Assembly: GCA_015523565.1 (NCBI GenBank) | Contig: WAKA01000161.1 | Location: 1 to 25,791, forward strand | DNA from: Candidatus Heimdallarchaeota archaeon | GTDB taxonomy: Archaea; Asgardarchaeota; Heimdallarchaeia; Heimdallarchaeales; Kariarchaeaceae | Direction of reading: 5' to 3' | Length of the DNA stretch: 25,791 bases | Shown here: positions 1,184-19,465 of the stretch, piece by piece | Numbering within the stretch: position 1 is the first letter of the stretch | Layout of the letters: each line of letters opens with the position of its first letter | Notes under the pieces: generated by a model | Databases searched by the model: none | What the model was told of the DNA's origin: nothing | Seen by the model: the letters and a program-made list of their open reading frames with translations, nothing else | Translations under genes and position numbers: made by a program

Positions 1184-1810
1184 ATGAAAATTCCCATGGT
1201 TCGGATATTTCTTATAACTTTATTATTTTTTTCCCTCTTCCATTTGCTCAGCGCTACAAGTACTGAAACACCAGAAAACAAAACAATAATTTATCAGTCA
1301 TCAACTTCTTCACCCCCTGGTGTTGAACCAATAGCATCTCAAAATTTAATTTCTGTTTCTTCACAGTCAAAAATAACTTCCCAATTAAATGCTATTACAT
1401 TAAATAATTCATACACCAGTTCATTAACTATCCCCTTTTTGTATTTTGTTTCATATCTTCCATTAATCCCATTCTTAATCTACATCCCCTTTCTCTTCCT
1501 TTCATACAAAAATAGACCACAAAAAAACAAAATAGACAAAGATAACTTTCAAACTTTCTTTGATATTCTTAATTTCACTGAAAATGCCATTACTCTTCAA
1601 AAGATTGTTTTTGCCTTTACTGGTTTTTCGATTTTAATCCTGATTTTTATTCTTATTTCATTTCAACCTTTTCAATGGCAGTTCTATCTTTCTTACCCAG
1701 TAGCCGCAATTATTTTTTATTTAGGGAAATCCAGCGGGGAATTTCATTTATCTAAACAATCTGTTGAAAAAAAACTTGATCCATTAAAAAATCATATTGA
1801 TAAGCTCTGA
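1184..1810 (+). CDS. Hypothetical membrane protein (signal peptide, S/T-rich linker, about 3 TM helices)
   Basis: 208-aa ORF preceded by tttatata and a gaggt SD-like site. Hydrophobic N-terminus and hydrophobic C-terminal segments. Confidence 0.6.
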   Translation: MKIPMVRIFLITLLFFSLFHLLSATSTETPENKTIIYQSSTSSPPGVEPIASQNLISVSSQSKITSQLNAITLNNSYTSSLTIPFLYFVSYLPLIPFLIYIPFLFLSYKNRPQKNKIDKDNFQTFFDILNFTENAITLQKIVFAFTGFSILILIFILISFQPFQWQFYLSYPVAAIIFYLGKSSGEFHLSKQSVEKKLDPLKNHIDKL

Positions 1811-2513: not shown

Positions 2514-2663
2514 ATGAAAAACAAAAACCACAATGATTCTGAAAAAATAGACACATCTCCTCAATCTTTTGATTTTCTTTCATTTTTGATAAGATTTGCA
2601 ACCCCATTAGGCTTACTTATCTTTTCAATTGGAACAATAATACAGATTTTTTCAAGACAATAG
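2514..2663 (+). CDS. 49-aa putative small membrane protein with a C-terminal TM helix
   Basis: Hand translation: MKNKNHNDSEKIDTSPQSFDFLSFLIRFATPLGLLIFSIGTIIQIFSRQ. It fills the gap and stops 4 nt before the convergent wHTH stop. AT-rich box aaattaat lies 20-28 nt upstream. Confidence 0.4.
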   Translation: MKNKNHNDSEKIDTSPQSFDFLSFLIRFATPLGLLIFSIGTIIQIFSRQ

Positions 2664-2667
2664 GGAT

Positions 2668-2967
2668 TTATTCCAAATCATTTATCCCAAAAAAATCTTT
2701 GAGTAAATGCTCTGCTGTCATCAAAAAATCCATTCCTTTCTCAGTAAGATAAAATAAAAAAGTTGTTCCTCCTTCTGATTGATGCCTTTCAATTCTTTCT
2801 TCTTTAACAAATCCTTTGTCTAACAGTTCTCCCAATAGCAAATTCAACTGTTTTGATGTTGGGATATTTAGCTGTTTTTTCATTTTGTACTTTGAAACTC
2901 CTTTATTTGACGATTTTATCAATTGCAAGATTGAAAATTTCAATTGGCTTTTATCACGTTTTTTCAT
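2668..2967 (-). CDS. Winged-helix DNA-binding protein (MarR/PadR/ArsR-like fold)
   Basis: 99 aa, basic. Pattern LLGELLDKGFV...FYLTEKG is typical of wHTH wings. Confidence 0.8.
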   Translation of the reverse strand: MKKRDKSQLKFSILQLIKSSNKGVSKYKMKKQLNIPTSKQLNLLLGELLDKGFVKEERIERHQSEGGTTFLFYLTEKGMDFLMTAEHLLKDFFGINDLE

Positions 2968-3076
2968 TAAATGAACTCTTTTCTTTTCTTCCTTTGAAAA
3001 TTAATAATCTTTTCTTGAAAATTTTGGTTATTGCCCCAATCATTTCACTGAAATATGCACTAACGGTTTAAAAATC

Positions 3077-4063
3077 ATGAAATACCGCTATCTAGGCAAA
3101 CACGGATTACGCATCTCTGAAATTTCTCTTGGTGCTTGGTTGACTTTTGGAGGATCAATCAATAAAGAAAAATCAAAAGAGATTATCACGACCGCTCTTG
3201 ATGAAGGAATCAATTTCATTGACATAGCTGATATTTACTCAAAAGGAAATGCAGAGAAAATCGTTGGTGAAATAGTGTCGGATGGAACATATGATAGAAA
3301 AGATTTAGTCATATCTTCTAAGGTTTTTTGGCCTATGTCTGACAATCCAAATGATATGGGTCTGTCACGAAAACATATCCTTGATTCAATTGAGGGATCC
3401 CTCAATCGATTAAATATGGACTACCTTGATATTTACTATTGTCATCGTTTTGATCATTTCACTCCACTTCGAGAAACCATAGAAGCAATGGACGACCTTG
3501 TTAGGTCAGGTCAGGTGAGGTATTGGGGTACCAGTGTCTGGAACGCTGCTCAATTGGAACGAGCCATTGGCATTGCAAAAGAAATTGGAGCACGTTTGCC
3601 TTCTGTTGAACAGCCACGGTATAACATGCTAGATCGATTTATAGAATTGGAAATTATTGATACTGCAAAATATCATGGTTTGGGTTTAACCGTCTGGTCT
3701 CCATTGGGTCAAGGAATATTGACTGGAAAATACAACAATGGAATCCCTGAGGGTAGTAGAGGTCAAACTTCTGAATTTTTAAAACGGGAATTAACTGATG
3801 AAAATATTGAAAAAGTAAAAAAACTTTCTGAAATTGCATCTGAACTAGAAATAACAATGTCCCAATTGGCTTTGGCGTGGGTTTTGCGAAAAGATGTAAT
3901 TTCAAGTGCAATCACAGGGGCAACTTCTGTAGATCAACTTCAAGAAAACATTGCTGCCTCAGATATTCGTCTCTCAAAAGAAGTTTTGGAGCAAATCGAG
4001 TCTATTTTGCTGAATGCTCCTGATCACCATCCAATTTATCGTATTGCCGTTCCAAATCGGTAG
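3077..4063 (+). CDS. Aldo/keto reductase (Kv-beta/Tas-like subfamily)
   Basis: MKYRYLG...SLGAWLTFG start. Catalytic tetrad contexts DIADIY, SSK and YCHR. WSPLGQGILTGKY. Confidence 0.93.
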   Translation: MKYRYLGKHGLRISEISLGAWLTFGGSINKEKSKEIITTALDEGINFIDIADIYSKGNAEKIVGEIVSDGTYDRKDLVISSKVFWPMSDNPNDMGLSRKHILDSIEGSLNRLNMDYLDIYYCHRFDHFTPLRETIEAMDDLVRSGQVRYWGTSVWNAAQLERAIGIAKEIGARLPSVEQPRYNMLDRFIELEIIDTAKYHGLGLTVWSPLGQGILTGKYNNGIPEGSRGQTSEFLKRELTDENIEKVKKLSEIASELEITMSQLALAWVLRKDVISSAITGATSVDQLQENIAASDIRLSKEVLEQIESILLNAPDHHPIYRIAVPNR

Positions 4064-11624: not shown

Positions 11625-14600
11625 ATGATGAGTGATCGATCAACTTTTTCCCCCTCATCAGAAGATGAGATTGACCCTTATATGGACGAAAACTATGACT
11701 TGACGCCCGATGATAAATGGGTCATCTTGAATGCAATGTTCCGGGAATTGGGTTTGGTTCGGCAACACTTGGATTCTTATAACTCCTTCATCAATCATGG
11801 ACTTAAGCAGGTCGTCTCTGAAGAAGCAGAAATTAGACCTGAAGATAAAAATGGCATGTACGTCATCCTTGATGAAATCTCTGTAGGTGAACCTGAAATT
11901 AAAGAGGCAAATGGCTCACGAAGTGAAATCTGGCCCATGGAAGCAAGAATTCGAAATTTGACCTATGCTGCTCCGATATACTTGACAATGACGGCTGTTT
12001 ATCCCGACGCTGTTCAAGGTGAAACAAGAAAAACCCCTAAAGAAAAAGTGTTCATTGGACATCTCCCCATTATGCTTAACTCCATTAAATGCAGACTTTA
12101 CAAGGCTGACGATGAAACAAAGATAAAACACGGTGAAGACCCTCTTGACGAAGGAGGGTATTTTATTGTAAATGGATCTGAAAGAGTATTGGTTACACAA
12201 GAGGATCTCGCACCAAACAGGATACTTGTCGAAAAATTGGAAAACAAGACTGCAACATCCCTTGCTAAAGTGTTTTCCACAATGAAGGGATTTAGGGCAC
12301 CTGTCACCCTTGAAAGAGCAAGGGACGGAAATCTCCGTGTCTCATTCCCTAGCGTCGCCAGAAAAATATCATTGATTGTCTTACTAAGGGCCTTGGGAAT
12401 GGAAAAAGACGGTGAGATCGCACGTCGAATCGGTTCCACCCCTAAAGTTCGTGCAAAACTGCTCCCCATCCTCCAAGCAGAAGAAGTGAGAAAAGAAGAA
12501 GAGGCCCTTGACTTTATCGGAAAACGTGTCGCCGTCGGTCAGACCAAGGAATACAGAATGAGTCGAACACAACAGGTACTTGATAGGTATTTATTGCCAC
12601 ACTTGGGAAATGAAAAATCTGATCGAAAAAAGAAAGCCATCTTCCTCTGTCAAATGGCTCAAAAGGTTCTAGAAATGGAAACTGGTGAACGAACTCCTGA
12701 TGACAAGGACCATTATGCAAACAAAAGACTCAACCTTGCAGGAGACTTGCTCCTTCTCCTCTTTAGAAATGCATTCCGAAGTCTTATCCGTGATATCAAA
12801 TATCAACTTGAAAGAAACTTCAACAGAAACCGTGGGTCTGTCCTAAAAACTGCTGTAAGGGCAGATGTCATTTCTGAAAGACTTAGGCATGCTTTGGCCA
12901 CTGGGAACTGGGTCGGCGGAAAAGCTGGCGTTTCACAACTTTTGGATAGAACTAATTATATGTCCTCTCTTAGCCACTTGCGGCGTGTCGTTTCTCCTTT
13001 GGGAAGGTCTCAACCACATTTCGAAGCCAGAGACCTCCATCCAACTCATTGGGGTAAGATCTGCCCCTCAGAAACCCCTGAAGGGCCAAACTGTGGACTT
13101 GTAAAAAACTTGGCATTACAGGCTTACATCTCAACAGAAGGTGATGAGGATCACGTCCGACAAGAAACCTATGAATTGGGGGTAGATCCTGAAGGAAATG
13201 AAAGTGATCCCAATCTCACAAAAGTTTACCTCAATGGTGCTTTTATTGGAACCCATCCAAATGGTGAGCATTTGGTCTATAAAATTAGGCAAGGAAGAAG
13301 AAACAGGATTTTTGATCCAGGTGTAAATGTTGCATATTACCCTGAAACCAAGGAAATCCAAATCAACTCTGACAGGGGTAGAGTCAGACGACCTCTCATA
13401 ATTGTCAAGGAGGGCCGTCCACTCTTAACGAAATATCACGTTGAAAAGGTCATTTCTGGAGAGTTGCAATGGAGAGACCTTACAAGGCAAGGTATCATTG
13501 AATATCTTGACACCGAAGAAGAGGAAAACTGCTATATTGCTTTAACATATGACGACATAACCAAAGAACATACCCATGTGGAAATTTCTCCTGCGGCAAT
13601 CCTTGGCATTTGTGCTTCACTTATTCCATTCCCTGAACATAACAGGTCCGACAGAAATGTTTACGAGGCAGGTATGGCTAAGCAATCTCTCGGTATCTAT
13701 GCCGCAAATTTCAGGCTCAGAATGGATACTCGTGCCCACATCCTCCATTACCCACAAGTCCCAATTGTCAAAACCCACGGAATTGATGCCATCAGATTCA
13801 ATCTAAGACCTGCTGGACAAAACTTTGTAGTTGCAGTACTCTCGTATGGTGGCTATAATATGGAAGATGGTCTGATCATGAGCAAAGGGGCAATCGACAG
13901 GGGATTGGGACGATCAACCTTCTTCAGGGCGTATGTCAGCGAAGAAAGACGATATCCTGGTGGACAGGAAGACCGTTTCTGCATCCCTGACGATAGTGTC
14001 CGTGGTTATAAAGACCCTGAGGTCTATAGGCATCTCGCTGAAGATGGTATTGTTGAACCTGAAACATTCATCGACGGAAAGAAAGGGGAAGTTATTATTG
14101 GTCGAACCAGCCCTCCGCGTTTTATTGAAGAACAGCAGGACTTCGACTTTGGAAATGAACAAAGAAGAGAAACAAGCCAAGCAATGAGATTCGGTGAATC
14201 TGGAATCGTCGACTCTGTGATTCTGACCGAAACTCAAGAAGGGCATAAACTCGTGAAAGTCAGAATGAGATCCCTTAGAATTCCTGAATTGGGCGATAAA
14301 TTCGCCAGCCGACATGGACAGAAAGGTGTACTTGGAAATTTGATCAACCCCGCTGATATGCCATTTACTGAAAACGGTCTTGTCCCCGACCTTATCATTA
14401 ATCCACATGCCATCCCCTCACGGATGACTATCGGTCAGCTTATTGAACTGCTTGCAGGAAAACTTGCATCTGTCACTGGCAGATTTATCACCGCAACTCC
14501 TTTCGAAGGTGAAAAGGTGGATGATATCACTGAAGCCCTCCATGCCGCAGGATACCAACGATACGGTCGTGAAAGAATGTATGACGGAAGGACGGGCGAA

Positions 14601-15029
14601 ATGCTGGATACCGACGTGTTTATTGGCATTGCATTTTACCAAAAACTCCATCACCTTGTCAATGACAAAATCCATGCACGGGCAAGAGGTCCTGTTCAAA
14701 TCCTCACTCGACAACCAACTGAAGGACGATCCAGAGAGGGTGGACTCAAATTCGGTGAAATGGAAAGAGATTGCCTTATCGGTCATGGAACCGCCCTTGT
14801 CCTTAAAGAAAGACTTCTTGACGAATCTGATAAGTCTGAAGCCTTATTCTGTGAACAATGTGGTTTCCTTGCATATTACAACCGAAAATTAGACAAGATG
14901 CAATGCCCTCTATGCAGGGACGAGGTGAATGTCAGCAGGATTGTTGTGTCCTATGCGTTTAAACTTCTCTTGCAAGAACTGATGTCAATGGGGATTGCAC
15001 CGCGTATTAGACTTAAGGAAAAAACATAA
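11625..15029 (+). CDS. rpoB: DNA-directed RNA polymerase subunit B (Rpo2), unsplit
   Basis: GLVRQHLDSYN, GGYFIVNGSERV, ETPEGPNCGLVKNL, GDKFASRHGQKG, GGLKFGEMERD, and C-terminal zinc ligands CEQC/CPLC. Confidence 0.98.
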   Translation: MMSDRSTFSPSSEDEIDPYMDENYDLTPDDKWVILNAMFRELGLVRQHLDSYNSFINHGLKQVVSEEAEIRPEDKNGMYVILDEISVGEPEIKEANGSRSEIWPMEARIRNLTYAAPIYLTMTAVYPDAVQGETRKTPKEKVFIGHLPIMLNSIKCRLYKADDETKIKHGEDPLDEGGYFIVNGSERVLVTQEDLAPNRILVEKLENKTATSLAKVFSTMKGFRAPVTLERARDGNLRVSFPSVARKISLIVLLRALGMEKDGEIARRIGSTPKVRAKLLPILQAEEVRKEEEALDFIGKRVAVGQTKEYRMSRTQQVLDRYLLPHLGNEKSDRKKKAIFLCQMAQKVLEMETGERTPDDKDHYANKRLNLAGDLLLLLFRNAFRSLIRDIKYQLERNFNRNRGSVLKTAVRADVISERLRHALATGNWVGGKAGVSQLLDRTNYMSSLSHLRRVVSPLGRSQPHFEARDLHPTHWGKICPSETPEGPNCGLVKNLALQAYISTEGDEDHVRQETYELGVDPEGNESDPNLTKVYLNGAFIGTHPNGEHLVYKIRQGRRNRIFDPGVNVAYYPETKEIQINSDRGRVRRPLIIVKEGRPLLTKYHVEKVISGELQWRDLTRQGIIEYLDTEEEENCYIALTYDDITKEHTHVEISPAAILGICASLIPFPEHNRSDRNVYEAGMAKQSLGIYAANFRLRMDTRAHILHYPQVPIVKTHGIDAIRFNLRPAGQNFVVAVLSYGGYNMEDGLIMSKGAIDRGLGRSTFFRAYVSEERRYPGGQEDRFCIPDDSVRGYKDPEVYRHLAEDGIVEPETFIDGKKGEVIIGRTSPPRFIEEQQDFDFGNEQRRETSQAMRFGESGIVDSVILTETQEGHKLVKVRMRSLRIPELGDKFASRHGQKGVLGNLINPADMPFTENGLVPDLIINPHAIPSRMTIGQLIELLAGKLASVTGRFITATPFEGEKVDDITEALHAAGYQRYGRERMYDGRTGEMLDTDVFIGIAFYQKLHHLVNDKIHARARGPVQILTRQPTEGRSREGGLKFGEMERDCLIGHGTALVLKERLLDESDKSEALFCEQCGFLAYYNRKLDKMQCPLCRDEVNVSRIVVSYAFKLLLQELMSMGIAPRIRLKEKT

Positions 15030-15600: not shown

Positions 15601-17406
15601 GGCGGCATATACTCCACCAAATGCCAACAACTCTGTATGTGTCCCACTTTCCACTATACGACCTTTTTCCAATACATGGATAATATCTGCATTTCTGATG
15701 GTTGAAAGCCTATGGGCAATCATCACTGTTGTCCTGCCAACAATGATACGTTCCAACGATCGCTGAATCGCCGCCTCTGTCTCATTATCTACAGATGACG
15801 TGGCCTCATCAAGAATAAGGATTGGGGGATTCTTCAATACCGCCCTGGCTATTGCAATACGTTGCCTTTGCCCTCCTGACAGTTTGTGCCCACGTTCTCC
15901 TACCAACGTCTCATATTTGTTTGGAAGACTCATCACAAAATCATGTATCTCTGCAACTTTTGCCGCTTCAATAATCTCCTCATCTGTTGCATCCAATTTC
16001 CCATACGCAATATTCTCCCTTACTGTTCCATCAACCAAAAACGTACTCTGGCTGACGTAACCAATGGCATTGCGCAAATCCTTCAATCGCAGTGTTGACA
16101 ATTCATTCCCATCAAGATATATATGCCCCCCTGTTGGATCATAAAACCTAAGCATCAGTTTTACAATCGTGGACTTTCCCGCTCCTGTTGAACCCACAAA
16201 GGCAACAGTCTCCCCCTGATTGACTGTAAAGTTCAATCCTCGCAATATGTTCGGTCGACTGGGATAATCAAAATCTACATTCTCGAAAATGATCTCCCCT
16301 TTCACATTTTCTTTCCTTAATTCCCTCTCCCCATCCTCCAATAATTTCGGACGATTGAGCAGGGAAAATATCCGATTGGTTGATGCCATCGATCGCTGAT
16401 AGAGATCAAATGTCTCCCCCAATCTTGTCAAGGGCCATAATAACCGTTGGATCAAAAAAATCGCAACACTATAGGCCGCAATCTCAATGTTCCCCTTGAT
16501 TGTCTCCACTCCCCCAATCACTAACATCCCTATAAATCCTGCAACAATGATTATTCGTATCAATGGTGAAAATGAAGAACTAAGTATTATCGCTCTCCTG
16601 TTGCTTAACTCATAGGCTTTTGACGCCTCTGCAATCCTTCTCGCCTCATAATCCTCCGTCCCAAAACTCTTAATGGTCATAATGCCAGAAAGATTGTTGG
16701 ACAACTCCGCATTTATTATCCCGACCTTTTCCCTTACATCCCTATAACGTTCTTCCAGCTTCTTCTGGTACTTGATCGAAAAAAACAAGATGATTGGCAT
16801 TGGAATTGTCGCAATCACCGCCAATGGAACGTTGATTCCATAAAACATTGCTGTAATGGCCACTGCTGTTGTGGTCACCTGTATCAAATCATTGGCTCCC
16901 ACATCCAGAAAACGCTCCAATTGGTTCACATCGTTGTTTATCACTGCCATCAACGAACCCGTGTTGTTTTCCTCGAAAAATGCCAACTCCAAGTCTTGGA
17001 CATGCCTGTATGTGTCCAACCTCAATTCATTCTGGATCGCCTGCGCTAAATTCCTCCACTTCACCTTGTACGCAAATTCAAAAATGGACTCAAACCCCCA
17101 AATAATGAACGTGAGCACTGCCAACACAATCAACTGCCTTGTAAGCCCCAAAATTCCAAAATCCCCTATGATTGAATTCTCCCGTCTCACTACTATGTCA
17201 ACTGCAATTCCAATCAGCAATGGTGGCGCCAAATCAAACAGCTTGTTCAAGACTGAATACAATGAGGCAAGAAAAAAATCCAAACGATATTGCTCTCCAT
17301 ACCTGAAAAGTTTAATCAAGGGATGTGTGTCCTTCACACCTCCTCTCTTGTCTCCCGCTTTGAAAGCTTTGGCAATTAACCTAACTTCATTTCCCCTTTT
17401 TTTCAC
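15559..17406 (-). CDS. ABC exporter, fused permease + ATPase (MdlB/MsbA-like)
   Basis: N-terminal TMD. Walker A GSTGAGKST, signature LSGGQ, Walker B ILILDEATS, H-loop IAHRLSTI. Confidence 0.95.
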   Translation of the reverse strand: MKKRGNEVRLIAKAFKAGDKRGGVKDTHPLIKLFRYGEQYRLDFFLASLYSVLNKLFDLAPPLLIGIAVDIVVRRENSIIGDFGILGLTRQLIVLAVLTFIIWGFESIFEFAYKVKWRNLAQAIQNELRLDTYRHVQDLELAFFEENNTGSLMAVINNDVNQLERFLDVGANDLIQVTTTAVAITAMFYGINVPLAVIATIPMPIILFFSIKYQKKLEERYRDVREKVGIINAELSNNLSGIMTIKSFGTEDYEARRIAEASKAYELSNRRAIILSSSFSPLIRIIIVAGFIGMLVIGGVETIKGNIEIAAYSVAIFLIQRLLWPLTRLGETFDLYQRSMASTNRIFSLLNRPKLLEDGERELRKENVKGEIIFENVDFDYPSRPNILRGLNFTVNQGETVAFVGSTGAGKSTIVKLMLRFYDPTGGHIYLDGNELSTLRLKDLRNAIGYVSQSTFLVDGTVRENIAYGKLDATDEEIIEAAKVAEIHDFVMSLPNKYETLVGERGHKLSGGQRQRIAIARAVLKNPPILILDEATSSVDNETEAAIQRSLERIIVGRTTVMIAHRLSTIRNADIIHVLEKGRIVESGTHTELLAFGGVYAALWRVQTGERLTAV

Positions 17407-18277
17407 ATCTTTCCTCTAAAACCTTTGGTGTCTCTATTGACGTAGAATAGTATATCTTTCCCTCAACTGAAACATTCTCTCCGAGTTTGATGCTGTCACC
17501 AATTATGTCTCCTTCTACCTTCACTCCATCCAGCTCTATCAATTCCCCCTTTATACTCCCCTTGACCCGAAACCAAGGTTCTGTGCTTATCCCCATGAAT
17601 GAACGGACCAGTTTGGTCACAAGCTCCCCAAAATCATCCCTCCTCTGCCATCCAATTCTTATCTCCTTTCCCTTCACATCCCCCTTGATAATGGAATCTC
17701 CTCCTCTAGGGCAACTGATCCGCTCTGCAGTCATGTCCCCATTGACCTTCACACTCCCCAATATCACAATGTCCTTCGTACATTCCAGCACACCCGCCTT
17801 TACTTTGCCCAATACCTTCAATTGATTCCCGCAAACCAATTCATCCTGCAATGTAAGCTTCCCTGCAATCGTCATCCGCCCTACAGAATAAACCGAACCA
17901 CCGCAATAGCATTTGCCCGTGATTGTGCATTCTCCCCCTGATTTCAATGCTCTCCCAACATCCAACTTCCCGTTTATAGATACTTTCCCACCTACCCTCA
18001 CCTCTCCGGAAATATGCCCTGACCCCGCAATCCCCAATCTCTCACAGCTTAAGTCCCCCGATACCCTCAAGATACCTGCCACAAGAACAGGACCATTGAC
18101 TGTCAATCCCTCTTGATATATTTTCCGACCATTAACCGTCAATGATTTCAATACTTTCGATTCAGGTTCAAGCAATCCCAGCCTCTTGAACTTTGAATAC
18201 AGCTCCCTGTATTCTGCCTCTGTTATCTCCCCTGAATCCAACTTGGCTTTTAACCGCCCCTCTAAGCTTTCAACCAT
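17387..18277 (-). CDS. Bactofilin/polymer-forming beta-helix protein with an N-terminal SHOCT-like domain
   Basis: Many short V/I-x-G repeats (VRVGGKVSINGKLDVG, VEGDIIGDSIKLGENVSVEGKIYY). N-terminal LKAKLDSGEITEAEY. Confidence 0.75.
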   Translation of the reverse strand: MVESLEGRLKAKLDSGEITEAEYRELYSKFKRLGLLEPESKVLKSLTVNGRKIYQEGLTVNGPVLVAGILRVSGDLSCERLGIAGSGHISGEVRVGGKVSINGKLDVGRALKSGGECTITGKCYCGGSVYSVGRMTIAGKLTLQDELVCGNQLKVLGKVKAGVLECTKDIVILGSVKVNGDMTAERISCPRGGDSIIKGDVKGKEIRIGWQRRDDFGELVTKLVRSFMGISTEPWFRVKGSIKGELIELDGVKVEGDIIGDSIKLGENVSVEGKIYYSTSIETPKVLEERCEKKGK

Positions 18278-18495
18278 ACTTATCCATCTTTAAACACCTG
18301 AACTTAAATAATCTCCCTTAACTTTAACTGAAACCCCTTAAACCATAAGGTGTATCTATAACCAAAATTCCCTTCATTTATTCCCTAAAATCTCCCATGC
18401 ATTGTTTCAAAATTTTGTTGACTTCGCGATAAATGTTCTCGTTTGTTTAATGAAGAATCAAATTTCAATATGTTTCCGATACTTTTGTCAAAGAG

Positions 18496-18503
18496 TTTAA
18501 ATA
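18496..18503 (+). promoter_or_regulatory. TATA box with a purine-rich BRE-like upstream segment
   Basis: caaagag-tttaaata, ending about 20 nt before the first hairpin. No plus-strand CDS follows. Confidence 0.5.
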
Positions 18504-18522
18504 TACCTAATCTATACATTAG

Positions 18523-18636
18523 TTTAACTGCATAGAAATTGGAAGGAAACTTCCTACTTAACTATGCAATTAAAGGCGTTGTCAAGGATCCGTTCGAACC
18601 TAACATAACCACCTACTTGGCGACGCTTTTTTTTTT
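18523..18636 (+). ncRNA. Candidate structured small RNA (two hairpins + U-tract), family unknown
   Basis: Stem 18523-18535/18562-18574 encloses ggaag-GAAA-cttcc. A second 12-bp stem, 18575-18586/18616-18627, has three G-U pairs. T10 run at 18627-18636. Confidence 0.6.
18627..18636 (+). terminator. Oligo-T terminator
   Basis: Ten consecutive T at the 3' end of the second stem. Confidence 0.5.
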
Positions 18637-18760
18637 AAAGTTCCATTGAGTGGACACTATACCCTGTGCATTTTTTCAAGTCCAATCTCTCATCAATTTC
18701 AAAAAATGCCGATTTACGGACACAATCCCCCCTGCTTTTTTTTTAAGTGCCAATAAACAC

Positions 18761-19402
18761 CTATGCATTTTCCCTAGATACCCATTCAATCAGGTCTTCC
18801 AAACCCATGATGTCCCTCCCTAAAATAATCCCCCTGACCCCCGCATCAACTGCCGCCATGAAGTCACTCTCTGTATCCCCAACCATCCATACCTCCCTTG
18901 ACCTGTCCGAGATCTCAATATCAAGCTTTTTGCAAATTCTTGAAATTGCCAGAACAATCCCCTCTCCAGAAGGCTTGGGTTGACTTACCTCCCGAAACCC
19001 AACCACCTCAGCAAACTCACTATCCAAACCAACCTGTTCCAACAAGCTGATCGCATTTTTTCTCTCATTAGAGGTCACAACCCCCAATGCAATCCCAAAA
19101 GCCCTCAATTGCCTGATGACTGCTGGCGTTGTGCCAAAAACATCTCCTCCAACTCTCGAACGGCTGAACTCAGAAAACCCTTGCCAAAAATGACGGTCTA
19201 TCTCCTCTAACCGCTGTTCTGGAACTCCCAATCGCCTTCCTGTCTCATGGGTTGACAACCCAGAAAGGGACTTGATATATTCATGCCCAGGAACATCCAA
19301 CCCCATCCGCTGTAACCCCTCTGCATAAATTCTCGCAACTACATCCTTCGTGTCTATCAATGTCCCATCCAAATCAAACAACATGATCTTCGGAATTCCC
19401 AT
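18761..19402 (-). CDS. HAD-superfamily hydrolase (phosphoglycolate phosphatase-like)
   Basis: FDLDGTLID motif I, VTSN, KP and MVGDTESD. The ATG of MGIPK is taken as the start. Confidence 0.92.
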   Translation of the reverse strand: MGIPKIMLFDLDGTLIDTKDVVARIYAEGLQRMGLDVPGHEYIKSLSGLSTHETGRRLGVPEQRLEEIDRHFWQGFSEFSRSRVGGDVFGTTPAVIRQLRAFGIALGVVTSNERKNAISLLEQVGLDSEFAEVVGFREVSQPKPSGEGIVLAISRICKKLDIEISDRSREVWMVGDTESDFMAAVDAGVRGIILGRDIMGLEDLIEWVSRENA

Positions 19403-19465
19403 TATGACATCTCCCCATCCCCCCAATCAAAAGCATTTATTTACATCACCTCGTGTAATTACATA

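Follow-up and report, generated by a model that had tools for sequence, protein, structure and literature searches.

The window analysed here, a 25,791-nt stretch of a Heimdallarchaeota contig, very probably contains a stand-alone small RNA gene of approximately 110 nt, as judged by its sequence signals. From comparison of related genomes, the locus is a conserved and previously undescribed RNA gene that is limited to one Heimdallarchaeota genus. The apical loop of its second hairpin is complementary to the Shine-Dalgarno (SD) sequence, the start codon and the first codons of a single gene located on another contig, which encodes a protein of 201 aa. It is probable, though well short of certain, that the product is a trans-encoded sRNA that would block translation initiation of this gene.

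Genomic location, sequence elements and predicted fold

The RNA gene is located on the plus strand between an upstream gene encoding a bactofilin/SHOCT-like protein (17387–18277) and a downstream gene encoding a HAD hydrolase (18761–19426). Both neighbours are encoded on the minus strand, so the structured region is not an untranslated region of either gene, as the earlier note had argued. The product of 17387–18277 is composed of an N-terminal SHOCT-like segment joined to a bactofilin domain. This gene is syntenic with the RNA, the HAD gene and genes for an EF-Tu-like GTPase and an ABC exporter in five of the six assemblies that carry the RNA. An unsplit RpoB is encoded at 11625–15029 of this archaeal window. 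The region from the T10 run to the HAD stop codon (18632–18760) features additional plus-strand T-runs, namely T6 near 18672 and T9 at 18736–18744, and an A6 stretch at 18701–18706 that is likely the minus-strand oligo-T terminator of the HAD gene.

The putative promoter of the RNA gene is composed of a BRE-like purine stretch (aaagag, 18490–18495) directly before a TATA box (tttaaata, 18496–18503). Downstream of the TATA box and ahead of the predicted start is the heptamer CTATACA (18512–18518), the columns of which are invariant in four genomes (alignment A1); it is a candidate promoter-proximal or initiator region. The transcript is predicted to extend over 18522–18636 on the plus strand, giving approximately 110–115 nt. 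Its start was placed by the TATA spacing (approximately 24–28 nt downstream, following archaeal promoter geometry) and its end by a T10 run (18627–18636), which resembles an archaeal oligo-T termination signal and would provide a U-tail.

The minimum free energy (MFE) fold of the plus strand contains two hairpins. Hairpin 1 (18529–18568) is composed of a 7-bp lower stem (18529–18535 with 18562–18568), an internal loop, a 5-bp upper stem (18541–18545 with 18550–18554) and a GAAA tetraloop (18546–18549); pairing of 18523–18527 with 18570–18574 could extend the lower stem to 13 bp with one mismatch. Hairpin 2 (18572–18630) has a 15-bp stem formed by 18572–18586 with 18616–18630, including three G-U/U-G pairs, and a 29-nt apical loop (18587–18615) that is predicted to be single-stranded, with a mean P(unpaired) of 0.80–0.90, and is near-invariant across homologues. 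The TATA box, the GNRA-capped first hairpin, the second hairpin with its large loop and the T10 run are all found where the earlier note had placed them, with hairpin 2 reaching 15 bp in the MFE fold. The plus-strand MFE is −34.1 kcal/mol versus −18.4 ± 3.0 kcal/mol in 200 dinucleotide shuffles (z −5.2), and 0 of the 200 shuffles match it. A good fold is likewise obtained for the minus strand (z −4.4), as the symmetric hairpin 1 is kept on that strand; hairpin 2 is not formed there, and its three G-U/U-G pairs make it specific to the plus strand.

Hairpin 1 is probably a 5′ stabilising or scaffold hairpin, and together with the U-tail it probably stabilises the RNA. The U-tail may additionally bind an Sm-like protein. 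The loop of hairpin 2 starts (18587–18599) with two self-complementary motifs, GGAUCC and GUUCGAAC, which could let two copies of the RNA dimerise through their loops or, at the DNA level, provide a palindrome for a regulator.

Distribution and conservation of the RNA unit

A BLAST search against 60 related genomes identified the RNA unit in three other species of the genus, with 82% identity in G001, 83% identity in G002 and a match to hairpin 2 only in G003. Together with G000, the genome that carries both the reference RNA and the target contig C1, these represent four species of one Heimdallarchaeota genus. A covariance model (R1) built from the four sequences matches 18515–18637 at 137 bits and finds exactly one copy per genome in each of G000–G003. 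The same model found no copy in 43 other genomes of the order, and the regions flanking the HAD gene in six other genomes of the family contained no RNA by either model search or duplex scan. Two more assemblies (REYS20 and DRR684994), reached through the neighbouring HAD protein, also carry the RNA; the assemblies containing the genus include DRR684993–5 and those of the REYS20 samples. Collecting homologues, a check suggested in the earlier note, thereby recovered the unit in five other genomes or assemblies, and all six homologous sequences exhibit one layout, with the BRE/TATA at constant spacing, followed by hairpin 1, hairpin 2 with its loop, and a T-run.

The conserved promoter motif AAAG(G/A)GTTTA(T/A)A(T/A)A is located at the same distance from hairpin 1, approximately 28 nt upstream, in all homologues. 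The position of hairpin 1 is kept in every homologue, its upper-stem sequence is replaced by lineage, its internal loop is not conserved, and a GNRA apex (GAAA, GUAA, GCAA, GAAA) is present in four of the six distinct sequences. The loop of hairpin 2 is invariant in five of the six homologues while hairpin 1 and the flanks diverge, and the sixth homologue, G003, has a 1-nt deletion in the loop (alignments A1/A6). The T-run of the homologues is T11, T10, T9 or T8, is interrupted in G002 (T5CCT4) and is weak in G003 (T3). These conserved signals, together with the G-U pairs that favour the plus strand, agree with the proposal of a stand-alone, plus-strand structured RNA gene made in the earlier note.

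The RNA unit of G003 is inverted relative to the HAD neighbour and is otherwise intact, and an intact inverted block fits a self-contained gene. This copy (L004, G003:C8, approximately 1493–1627, minus strand) is located directly upstream of the HAD gene on the same strand, and with only T3 after the hairpin there may be read-through into the HAD mRNA.

The covariation analysis that had been suggested alongside the homologue collection gave a divided result. In the seven distinct rows, both partners change in six pairs, a count reached by 3 of 500 shuffles; against this stand the near-invariant arms of hairpin 2 and the poorly alignable upper stem of hairpin 1. In hairpin 2, 95% of the cells are paired over the seven distinct sequences, and in the upper stem of hairpin 1 all five of five pairs are changed on both sides, in a region where the alignment is uncertain. 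The covariation score is 0.122 versus 0.092 (11 of 500 shuffles), with only 6–7 distinct sequences, and the shuffle controls are not decisive. Given so few sequences and so little variation in the arms of hairpin 2, formal covariation support is weak.

Complementarity of the loop to a single gene start

The BLAST search of the related genomes also returned a weak second match, to the loop alone, at another conserved locus in G000, G001 and G002, in which a block of 28 nt is invariant. Read on the opposite strand, this block consists of GGTGGT as the SD, 3 nt of spacer and codons 1–6 (MLGSNG), ATG included, of an ORF encoding 201 aa. The ORF is located on the minus strand of a contig other than that of the RNA (G000:C1:14038–14640; positions 2536–3141 of locus L034) and has its own conserved TATA box approximately 50 nt upstream.

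The predicted target-recognition segment of the loop (18588–18613) is antisense to positions −9 to +19 of this mRNA. Residues 18588–18607 form 20 consecutive pairs, one of them G-U, with mRNA positions −1 to +19, and residues 18608–18613 (ACCACC) pair with the SD GGUGGU at −9 to −4, leaving two mRNA bases bulged. ACCACC resembles the archaeal 16S anti-SD. The SD was assigned by the general archaeal anti-SD sequence, the 3′ end of the 16S rRNA not being assembled in this MAG. The earlier note had supposed that the C/A-rich loop could pair with a purine-rich target, and the sequences point to such a target in the SD and AUG region of one mRNA. Its description of GUUCGAA in the loop as T-loop- or B-box-like does not hold, as the heptamer has no flanking T-stem and is the complement of target codons 3–5 (Gly-Ser-Asn).

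A seeded duplex scan of both strands of the 3.57-Mb G000 genome identified C1:14613–14658 (minus strand) as the best trans site for the loop at −44.8 kcal/mol, followed by a site at −37.6 kcal/mol. The best sites of 60 shuffled loops have a mean of −29.7 kcal/mol (sd 2.8), with the best at −36.1 kcal/mol. Secondary target candidates in G000 (on C36, C177, C54 and C42) were rejected, being ORF-internal, at the starts of tiny ORFs or rich in G-U pairs, and within the range of the shuffled loops. Each of G000, G001 and G002 has exactly two copies of the 18-mer shared by loop and target, one at either locus, and an exact-pattern scan of GTDB genomes and JGI metagenomes with this 18-mer recovered, apart from matches by chance or in bacterial coding sequence, no loci beyond those already known from Heimdallarchaeota.

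The conservation of the two loci is also linked. The target region from −11 to +19 is identical in five assemblies except for one base of the spacer, and the adjacent codons diverge at both the DNA and the protein level. In the target of G003, the SD, the AUG and three codons are kept, so that 6 + 10 (+3) bp of the pairing remain; the 5′ half of the loop is invariant in this genome though the target pairing there is lost. This half of the loop may be constrained by another target, by a protein or by the motifs GGAUCC and GUUCGAAC. The RNA and a complementary target start are found together in six of six genomes or assemblies, with reduced pairing in G003. The MLGSN N-terminus is restricted to the RNA-bearing genus, and orthologues in other genera, where the RNA was not found, start differently. 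A BLAST search of the target start of G007, which belongs to another genus of the family, against its own genome gave one weak match (E 0.83) without features of an RNA gene.

The 5′ UTR of the target contains a conserved ACTCT approximately 20 nt upstream of the ATG that can pair with AGGGT overlapping the SD (L034, approximately 3150–3175, minus strand). The small hairpin that would result, in which ACUCU is paired with part of the SD, can form in G000, G001 and both extra assemblies, and may represent a second layer of control or an initiator region.

The predicted target protein

The target belongs to a family of proteins of approximately 175–215 aa with orthologues in 11 of the 11 genomes of the family that were searched and in some genomes of the order. 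Within genus g1, the gene is located between genes encoding a LON-N-domain protein and a cytidine deaminase. Searches of Pfam, PADLOC and PDB-sequence profiles with the protein returned no match. An AlphaFold model built from 21 homologues (pLDDT 85) exhibits a soluble alpha/beta fold, and according to this model residues 78–201 have a PD-(D/E)xK (Mrr-like) nuclease fold. VIA-align superposes these residues on AF1548 (1y88) with a Z-score of 10.1 (rmsd 2.7, 111 aa), on the Can2 nuclease domain with a Z-score of 9.2 and on NucS/EndoMS with Z-scores of 8.4–8.8. The Foldseek E-values for the model are all above 0.001, and usable Z-scores come from VIA-align only; the Atlas pointed weakly to Mrr_cat and PDDEXK_3. 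E121 and D134 hardly vary, and most of the 21 homologues have a K/R residue after D134. Residues 78–201 also resemble the Rpb5 N-terminal domain (Z 8.5, rmsd 2.2, 95 aa, 17% identity), the eukaryote-specific "jaw" domain, a likeness that is not specific, given the equal or higher scores of AF1548 and Can2. For the target gene, neither a methyltransferase partner nor a defence-system signature was found. The predicted nuclease-like nature of the product would give a rationale for tight translational control.

Proposed mechanism and alternative explanations

In the mechanism considered probable here, the RNA would be transcribed from the plus strand by its own BRE/TATA promoter, with transcription ending at the oligo-T run. 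The long stem of hairpin 2 would hold the 29-nt loop open and present it for pairing in trans with the 5′ end of the mRNA for the 201-aa nuclease-fold protein. A duplex of 6 bp on the SD and 20 bp on the AUG and codons 1–6 would keep the 30S subunit off the mRNA, resulting in translational repression. The RNA gene itself may have originated by inverted duplication of the first ~28 nt of the target, as suggested by 26 of 28 shared bases. A mini-ORF on the minus strand of the RNA gene (18562–18606), composed of an SD-like GGTGG, an ATG and 14 codons starting MLGSNG, is the mirror image of the 5′ end of the target gene and would be a probable relic or scar of that duplication. Counting against a reading as sRNA and target is the weak terminator of G003, which is followed by the HAD gene on the same strand, and the complementarity would be equally expected if the locus were a mere relic of a duplicated gene start.

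A further-reaching version of this mechanism is unlikely as a whole, with an appreciable chance nonetheless. It states that inverted duplication in the ancestor of the genus gave rise to the RNA gene, which now acts as an antitoxin-like RNA brake on a potentially harmful PD-(D/E)xK nuclease, with the 26-bp duplex, once the loop has made first contact, perhaps also marking the mRNA for cleavage. If true, the archaeal lineage nearest to eukaryotes would possess a silencing module made of a single RNA and dedicated to a single gene, born in a manner similar to the one proposed for young plant miRNA genes.

The invariance of the 5′ half of the loop in G003 despite the lost target pairing, an invariance shared by the 5′ arm of hairpin 2, would also be expected of a structured plus-strand RNA whose main job is a different one, such as a protein-binding scaffold or a regulator of other targets, with the complementarity being a historical trace. 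The self-complementary motifs GGAUCC and GUUCGAAC could serve such an RNA in dimerisation or protein binding. This explanation is improbable, with a modest chance of being correct: it leaves unexplained why 28 nt of the target are frozen in five assemblies amid diverging codons and why the RNA and target loci continue to match, and no better complementary site is present in G000.

The mini-ORF raises the question of whether the minus strand is the functional one, either as a duplicated gene start encoding a 14-aa peptide or as a decoy that titrates a binder of the real 5′ end. The arrangement GGTGG-TT-ATG is followed by 14 codons, the first six of which match the target protein, and an A/T-rich TATA-like stretch (the complement of the T10 run) is located approximately 30 nt upstream. 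In G003, however, a deletion has removed the ATG and the frame closes after seven codons. Neither G002 nor G003 has conserved the TATA-like stretch, whereas all homologues have the plus-strand BRE/TATA. Peptide residues 7–14 only mirror the hairpin arm, and the plus-strand specificity conferred on hairpin 2 by its three G-U pairs also speaks against a function of the minus strand, which is considered quite improbable.

The shared 28 nt could in principle be a DNA operator for one transcription factor at both loci, with the hairpins being incidental. Palindromes of the type bound by dimeric regulators do occur, namely GGATCC (confined to the RNA locus) and GTTCGAAC (which reads GTTCGAAT at the target), but the target copy is not perfectly palindromic. 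The shared stretch lacks symmetry and extends from the SD across the ATG into the coding sequence, as fits recognition of a translation start at the RNA level, and an operator would not explain the conserved promoter, the G-U-containing stems or the T-run. This reading is very improbable.

The RNA was finally compared with known families, beginning with the Infernal search against Rfam that the earlier note had suggested. Across the whole window, no Rfam family was matched at its gathering score. A permissive search (E ≤ 10) of 18280–18780 gave the SR6 antitoxin (RF02892) as the best match, at 20.2 bits (E 0.57) versus a gathering score of 55, and membership was rejected as the match reflects a general likeness of shape only. 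On the minus strand, a SNORD69-like Rfam match within 18632–18760 (18 bits) has a C box and lacks a D box, and is not considered a C/D RNA. ARAGORN identified no tRNA or tmRNA. A tRNA or other T-loop RNA was rejected on the blank ARAGORN and Rfam results, and also since the bases beside GUUCGAA cannot pair and there is thus no T-stem. Likewise, an H/ACA guide RNA does not fit, with no ACA box after the hairpin, no internal loop in hairpin 1 of G002 and G003 and no Rfam family; neither does a C/D guide RNA, with no box C/D pair in the sequence and no Rfam family. Type I toxin-antitoxin systems are expected to have a hydrophobic toxin of fewer than 60 aa that is adjacent or overlapping, and the target here is a 201-aa protein with a predicted soluble alpha/beta fold encoded on another contig. 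The supported conclusion is that the RNA belongs to no described family, in line with the earlier note, which had not recognised one. What speaks for a known class, whether tRNA-like, T-loop, H/ACA guide, C/D guide or type I antitoxin of the SR6 kind, is the T-loop-like GUUCGAA, the internal loop of hairpin 1 in G000 and the weak SR6 shape match. Set against an internal loop that is not conserved, the missing ACA/ANA and C/D boxes and T-stem, the blank Rfam and tRNA searches and a target that is not an adjacent small hydrophobic toxin, these leave a known class with almost no probability.

Significance and comparison with known systems

In the literature found, regulatory sRNAs with validated targets are restricted to a few euryarchaeal and crenarchaeal models, and the search, which was not exhaustive, returned no described sRNA–target pair in Asgard archaea. 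The RNA and the 201-aa gene would constitute a predicted, testable pair of RNA regulator and target in a close relative of eukaryotes. Its target is evident directly from the genomes, as a 26-bp match over the SD and AUG that is unique in the genome and kept in both partners across the six assemblies (partly in G003), and the pairing can be tested without culturing the organism. The sequences also suggest that Heimdallarchaeota use both SD-dependent initiation and RNA that occludes it. The restriction to one genus would further make this a dated example of a new sRNA gene and its target site arising and then freezing together.

The closest archaeal comparison is sRNA162 of Methanosarcina mazei, a trans/cis antisense sRNA that masks the ribosome-binding site (RBS) of an mRNA in trans (PMC3510493). 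Both are archaeal intergenic RNAs in which a single-stranded region pairs, or in the Heimdallarchaeal case is predicted to pair, with the RBS of a remote mRNA, with translational repression as the proposed outcome. sRNA162 uses an unstructured linker (PMC3510493), the Heimdallarchaeal seed is a 29-nt hairpin loop, and the two share no relation in sequence or structure. The predicted Heimdallarchaeal pairing is also much longer (6 + 20 bp) and spans the SD, the AUG and six codons. The two RNAs belong to different lineages, Asgard archaea and Methanosarcinales respectively, and sRNA162 has been validated experimentally whereas the Heimdallarchaeal RNA is a prediction from sequence.

Among bacteria, many sRNAs occlude the SD or AUG of their targets, and trans-encoded or loop-presented antisense RNAs include the OxyS–fhlA loop contacts and the kissing initiation of CopA/CopT. 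The Heimdallarchaeal RNA resembles bacterial trans-encoded sRNAs in having its own promoter, a 3′ hairpin with a U-tail and a conserved, accessible seed over the SD and start codon of its target. It differs from them in its BRE/TATA promoter, its oligo-T termination signal and its one apparent target, and no Hfq is expected to take part, at most a putative Sm-like archaeal protein. The near-perfect, long complementarity is that of a cis-antisense RNA, yet the gene is located in trans. The likeness to SR6 (RF02892), from a Bacillus type I toxin-antitoxin system, is one of architecture, in which a small hairpin at the 5′ end is joined by a linker to a long, terminator-like hairpin that has a loop of approximately 30 nt and is followed by a U-tail. 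SR6 comes from a different domain of life and has no sequence in common with the Heimdallarchaeal RNA, whose gene lies apart from the predicted target gene and whose target is no small toxin of the membrane.

In restriction-modification systems, restriction endonuclease genes can be under the control of antisense RNAs, which are cis-encoded. The Heimdallarchaeal pair is similar in that a gene with a predicted nuclease fold would be restrained by an RNA complementary to its 5′ end, and differs in that the RNA is trans-encoded and no methyltransferase partner was found. Plant miRNA genes can originate by inverted duplication of their target, and the Heimdallarchaeal RNA gene is comparable in this respect, as the putative regulator contains part of its target in inverted form, with the mirror-image mini-ORF as a component.
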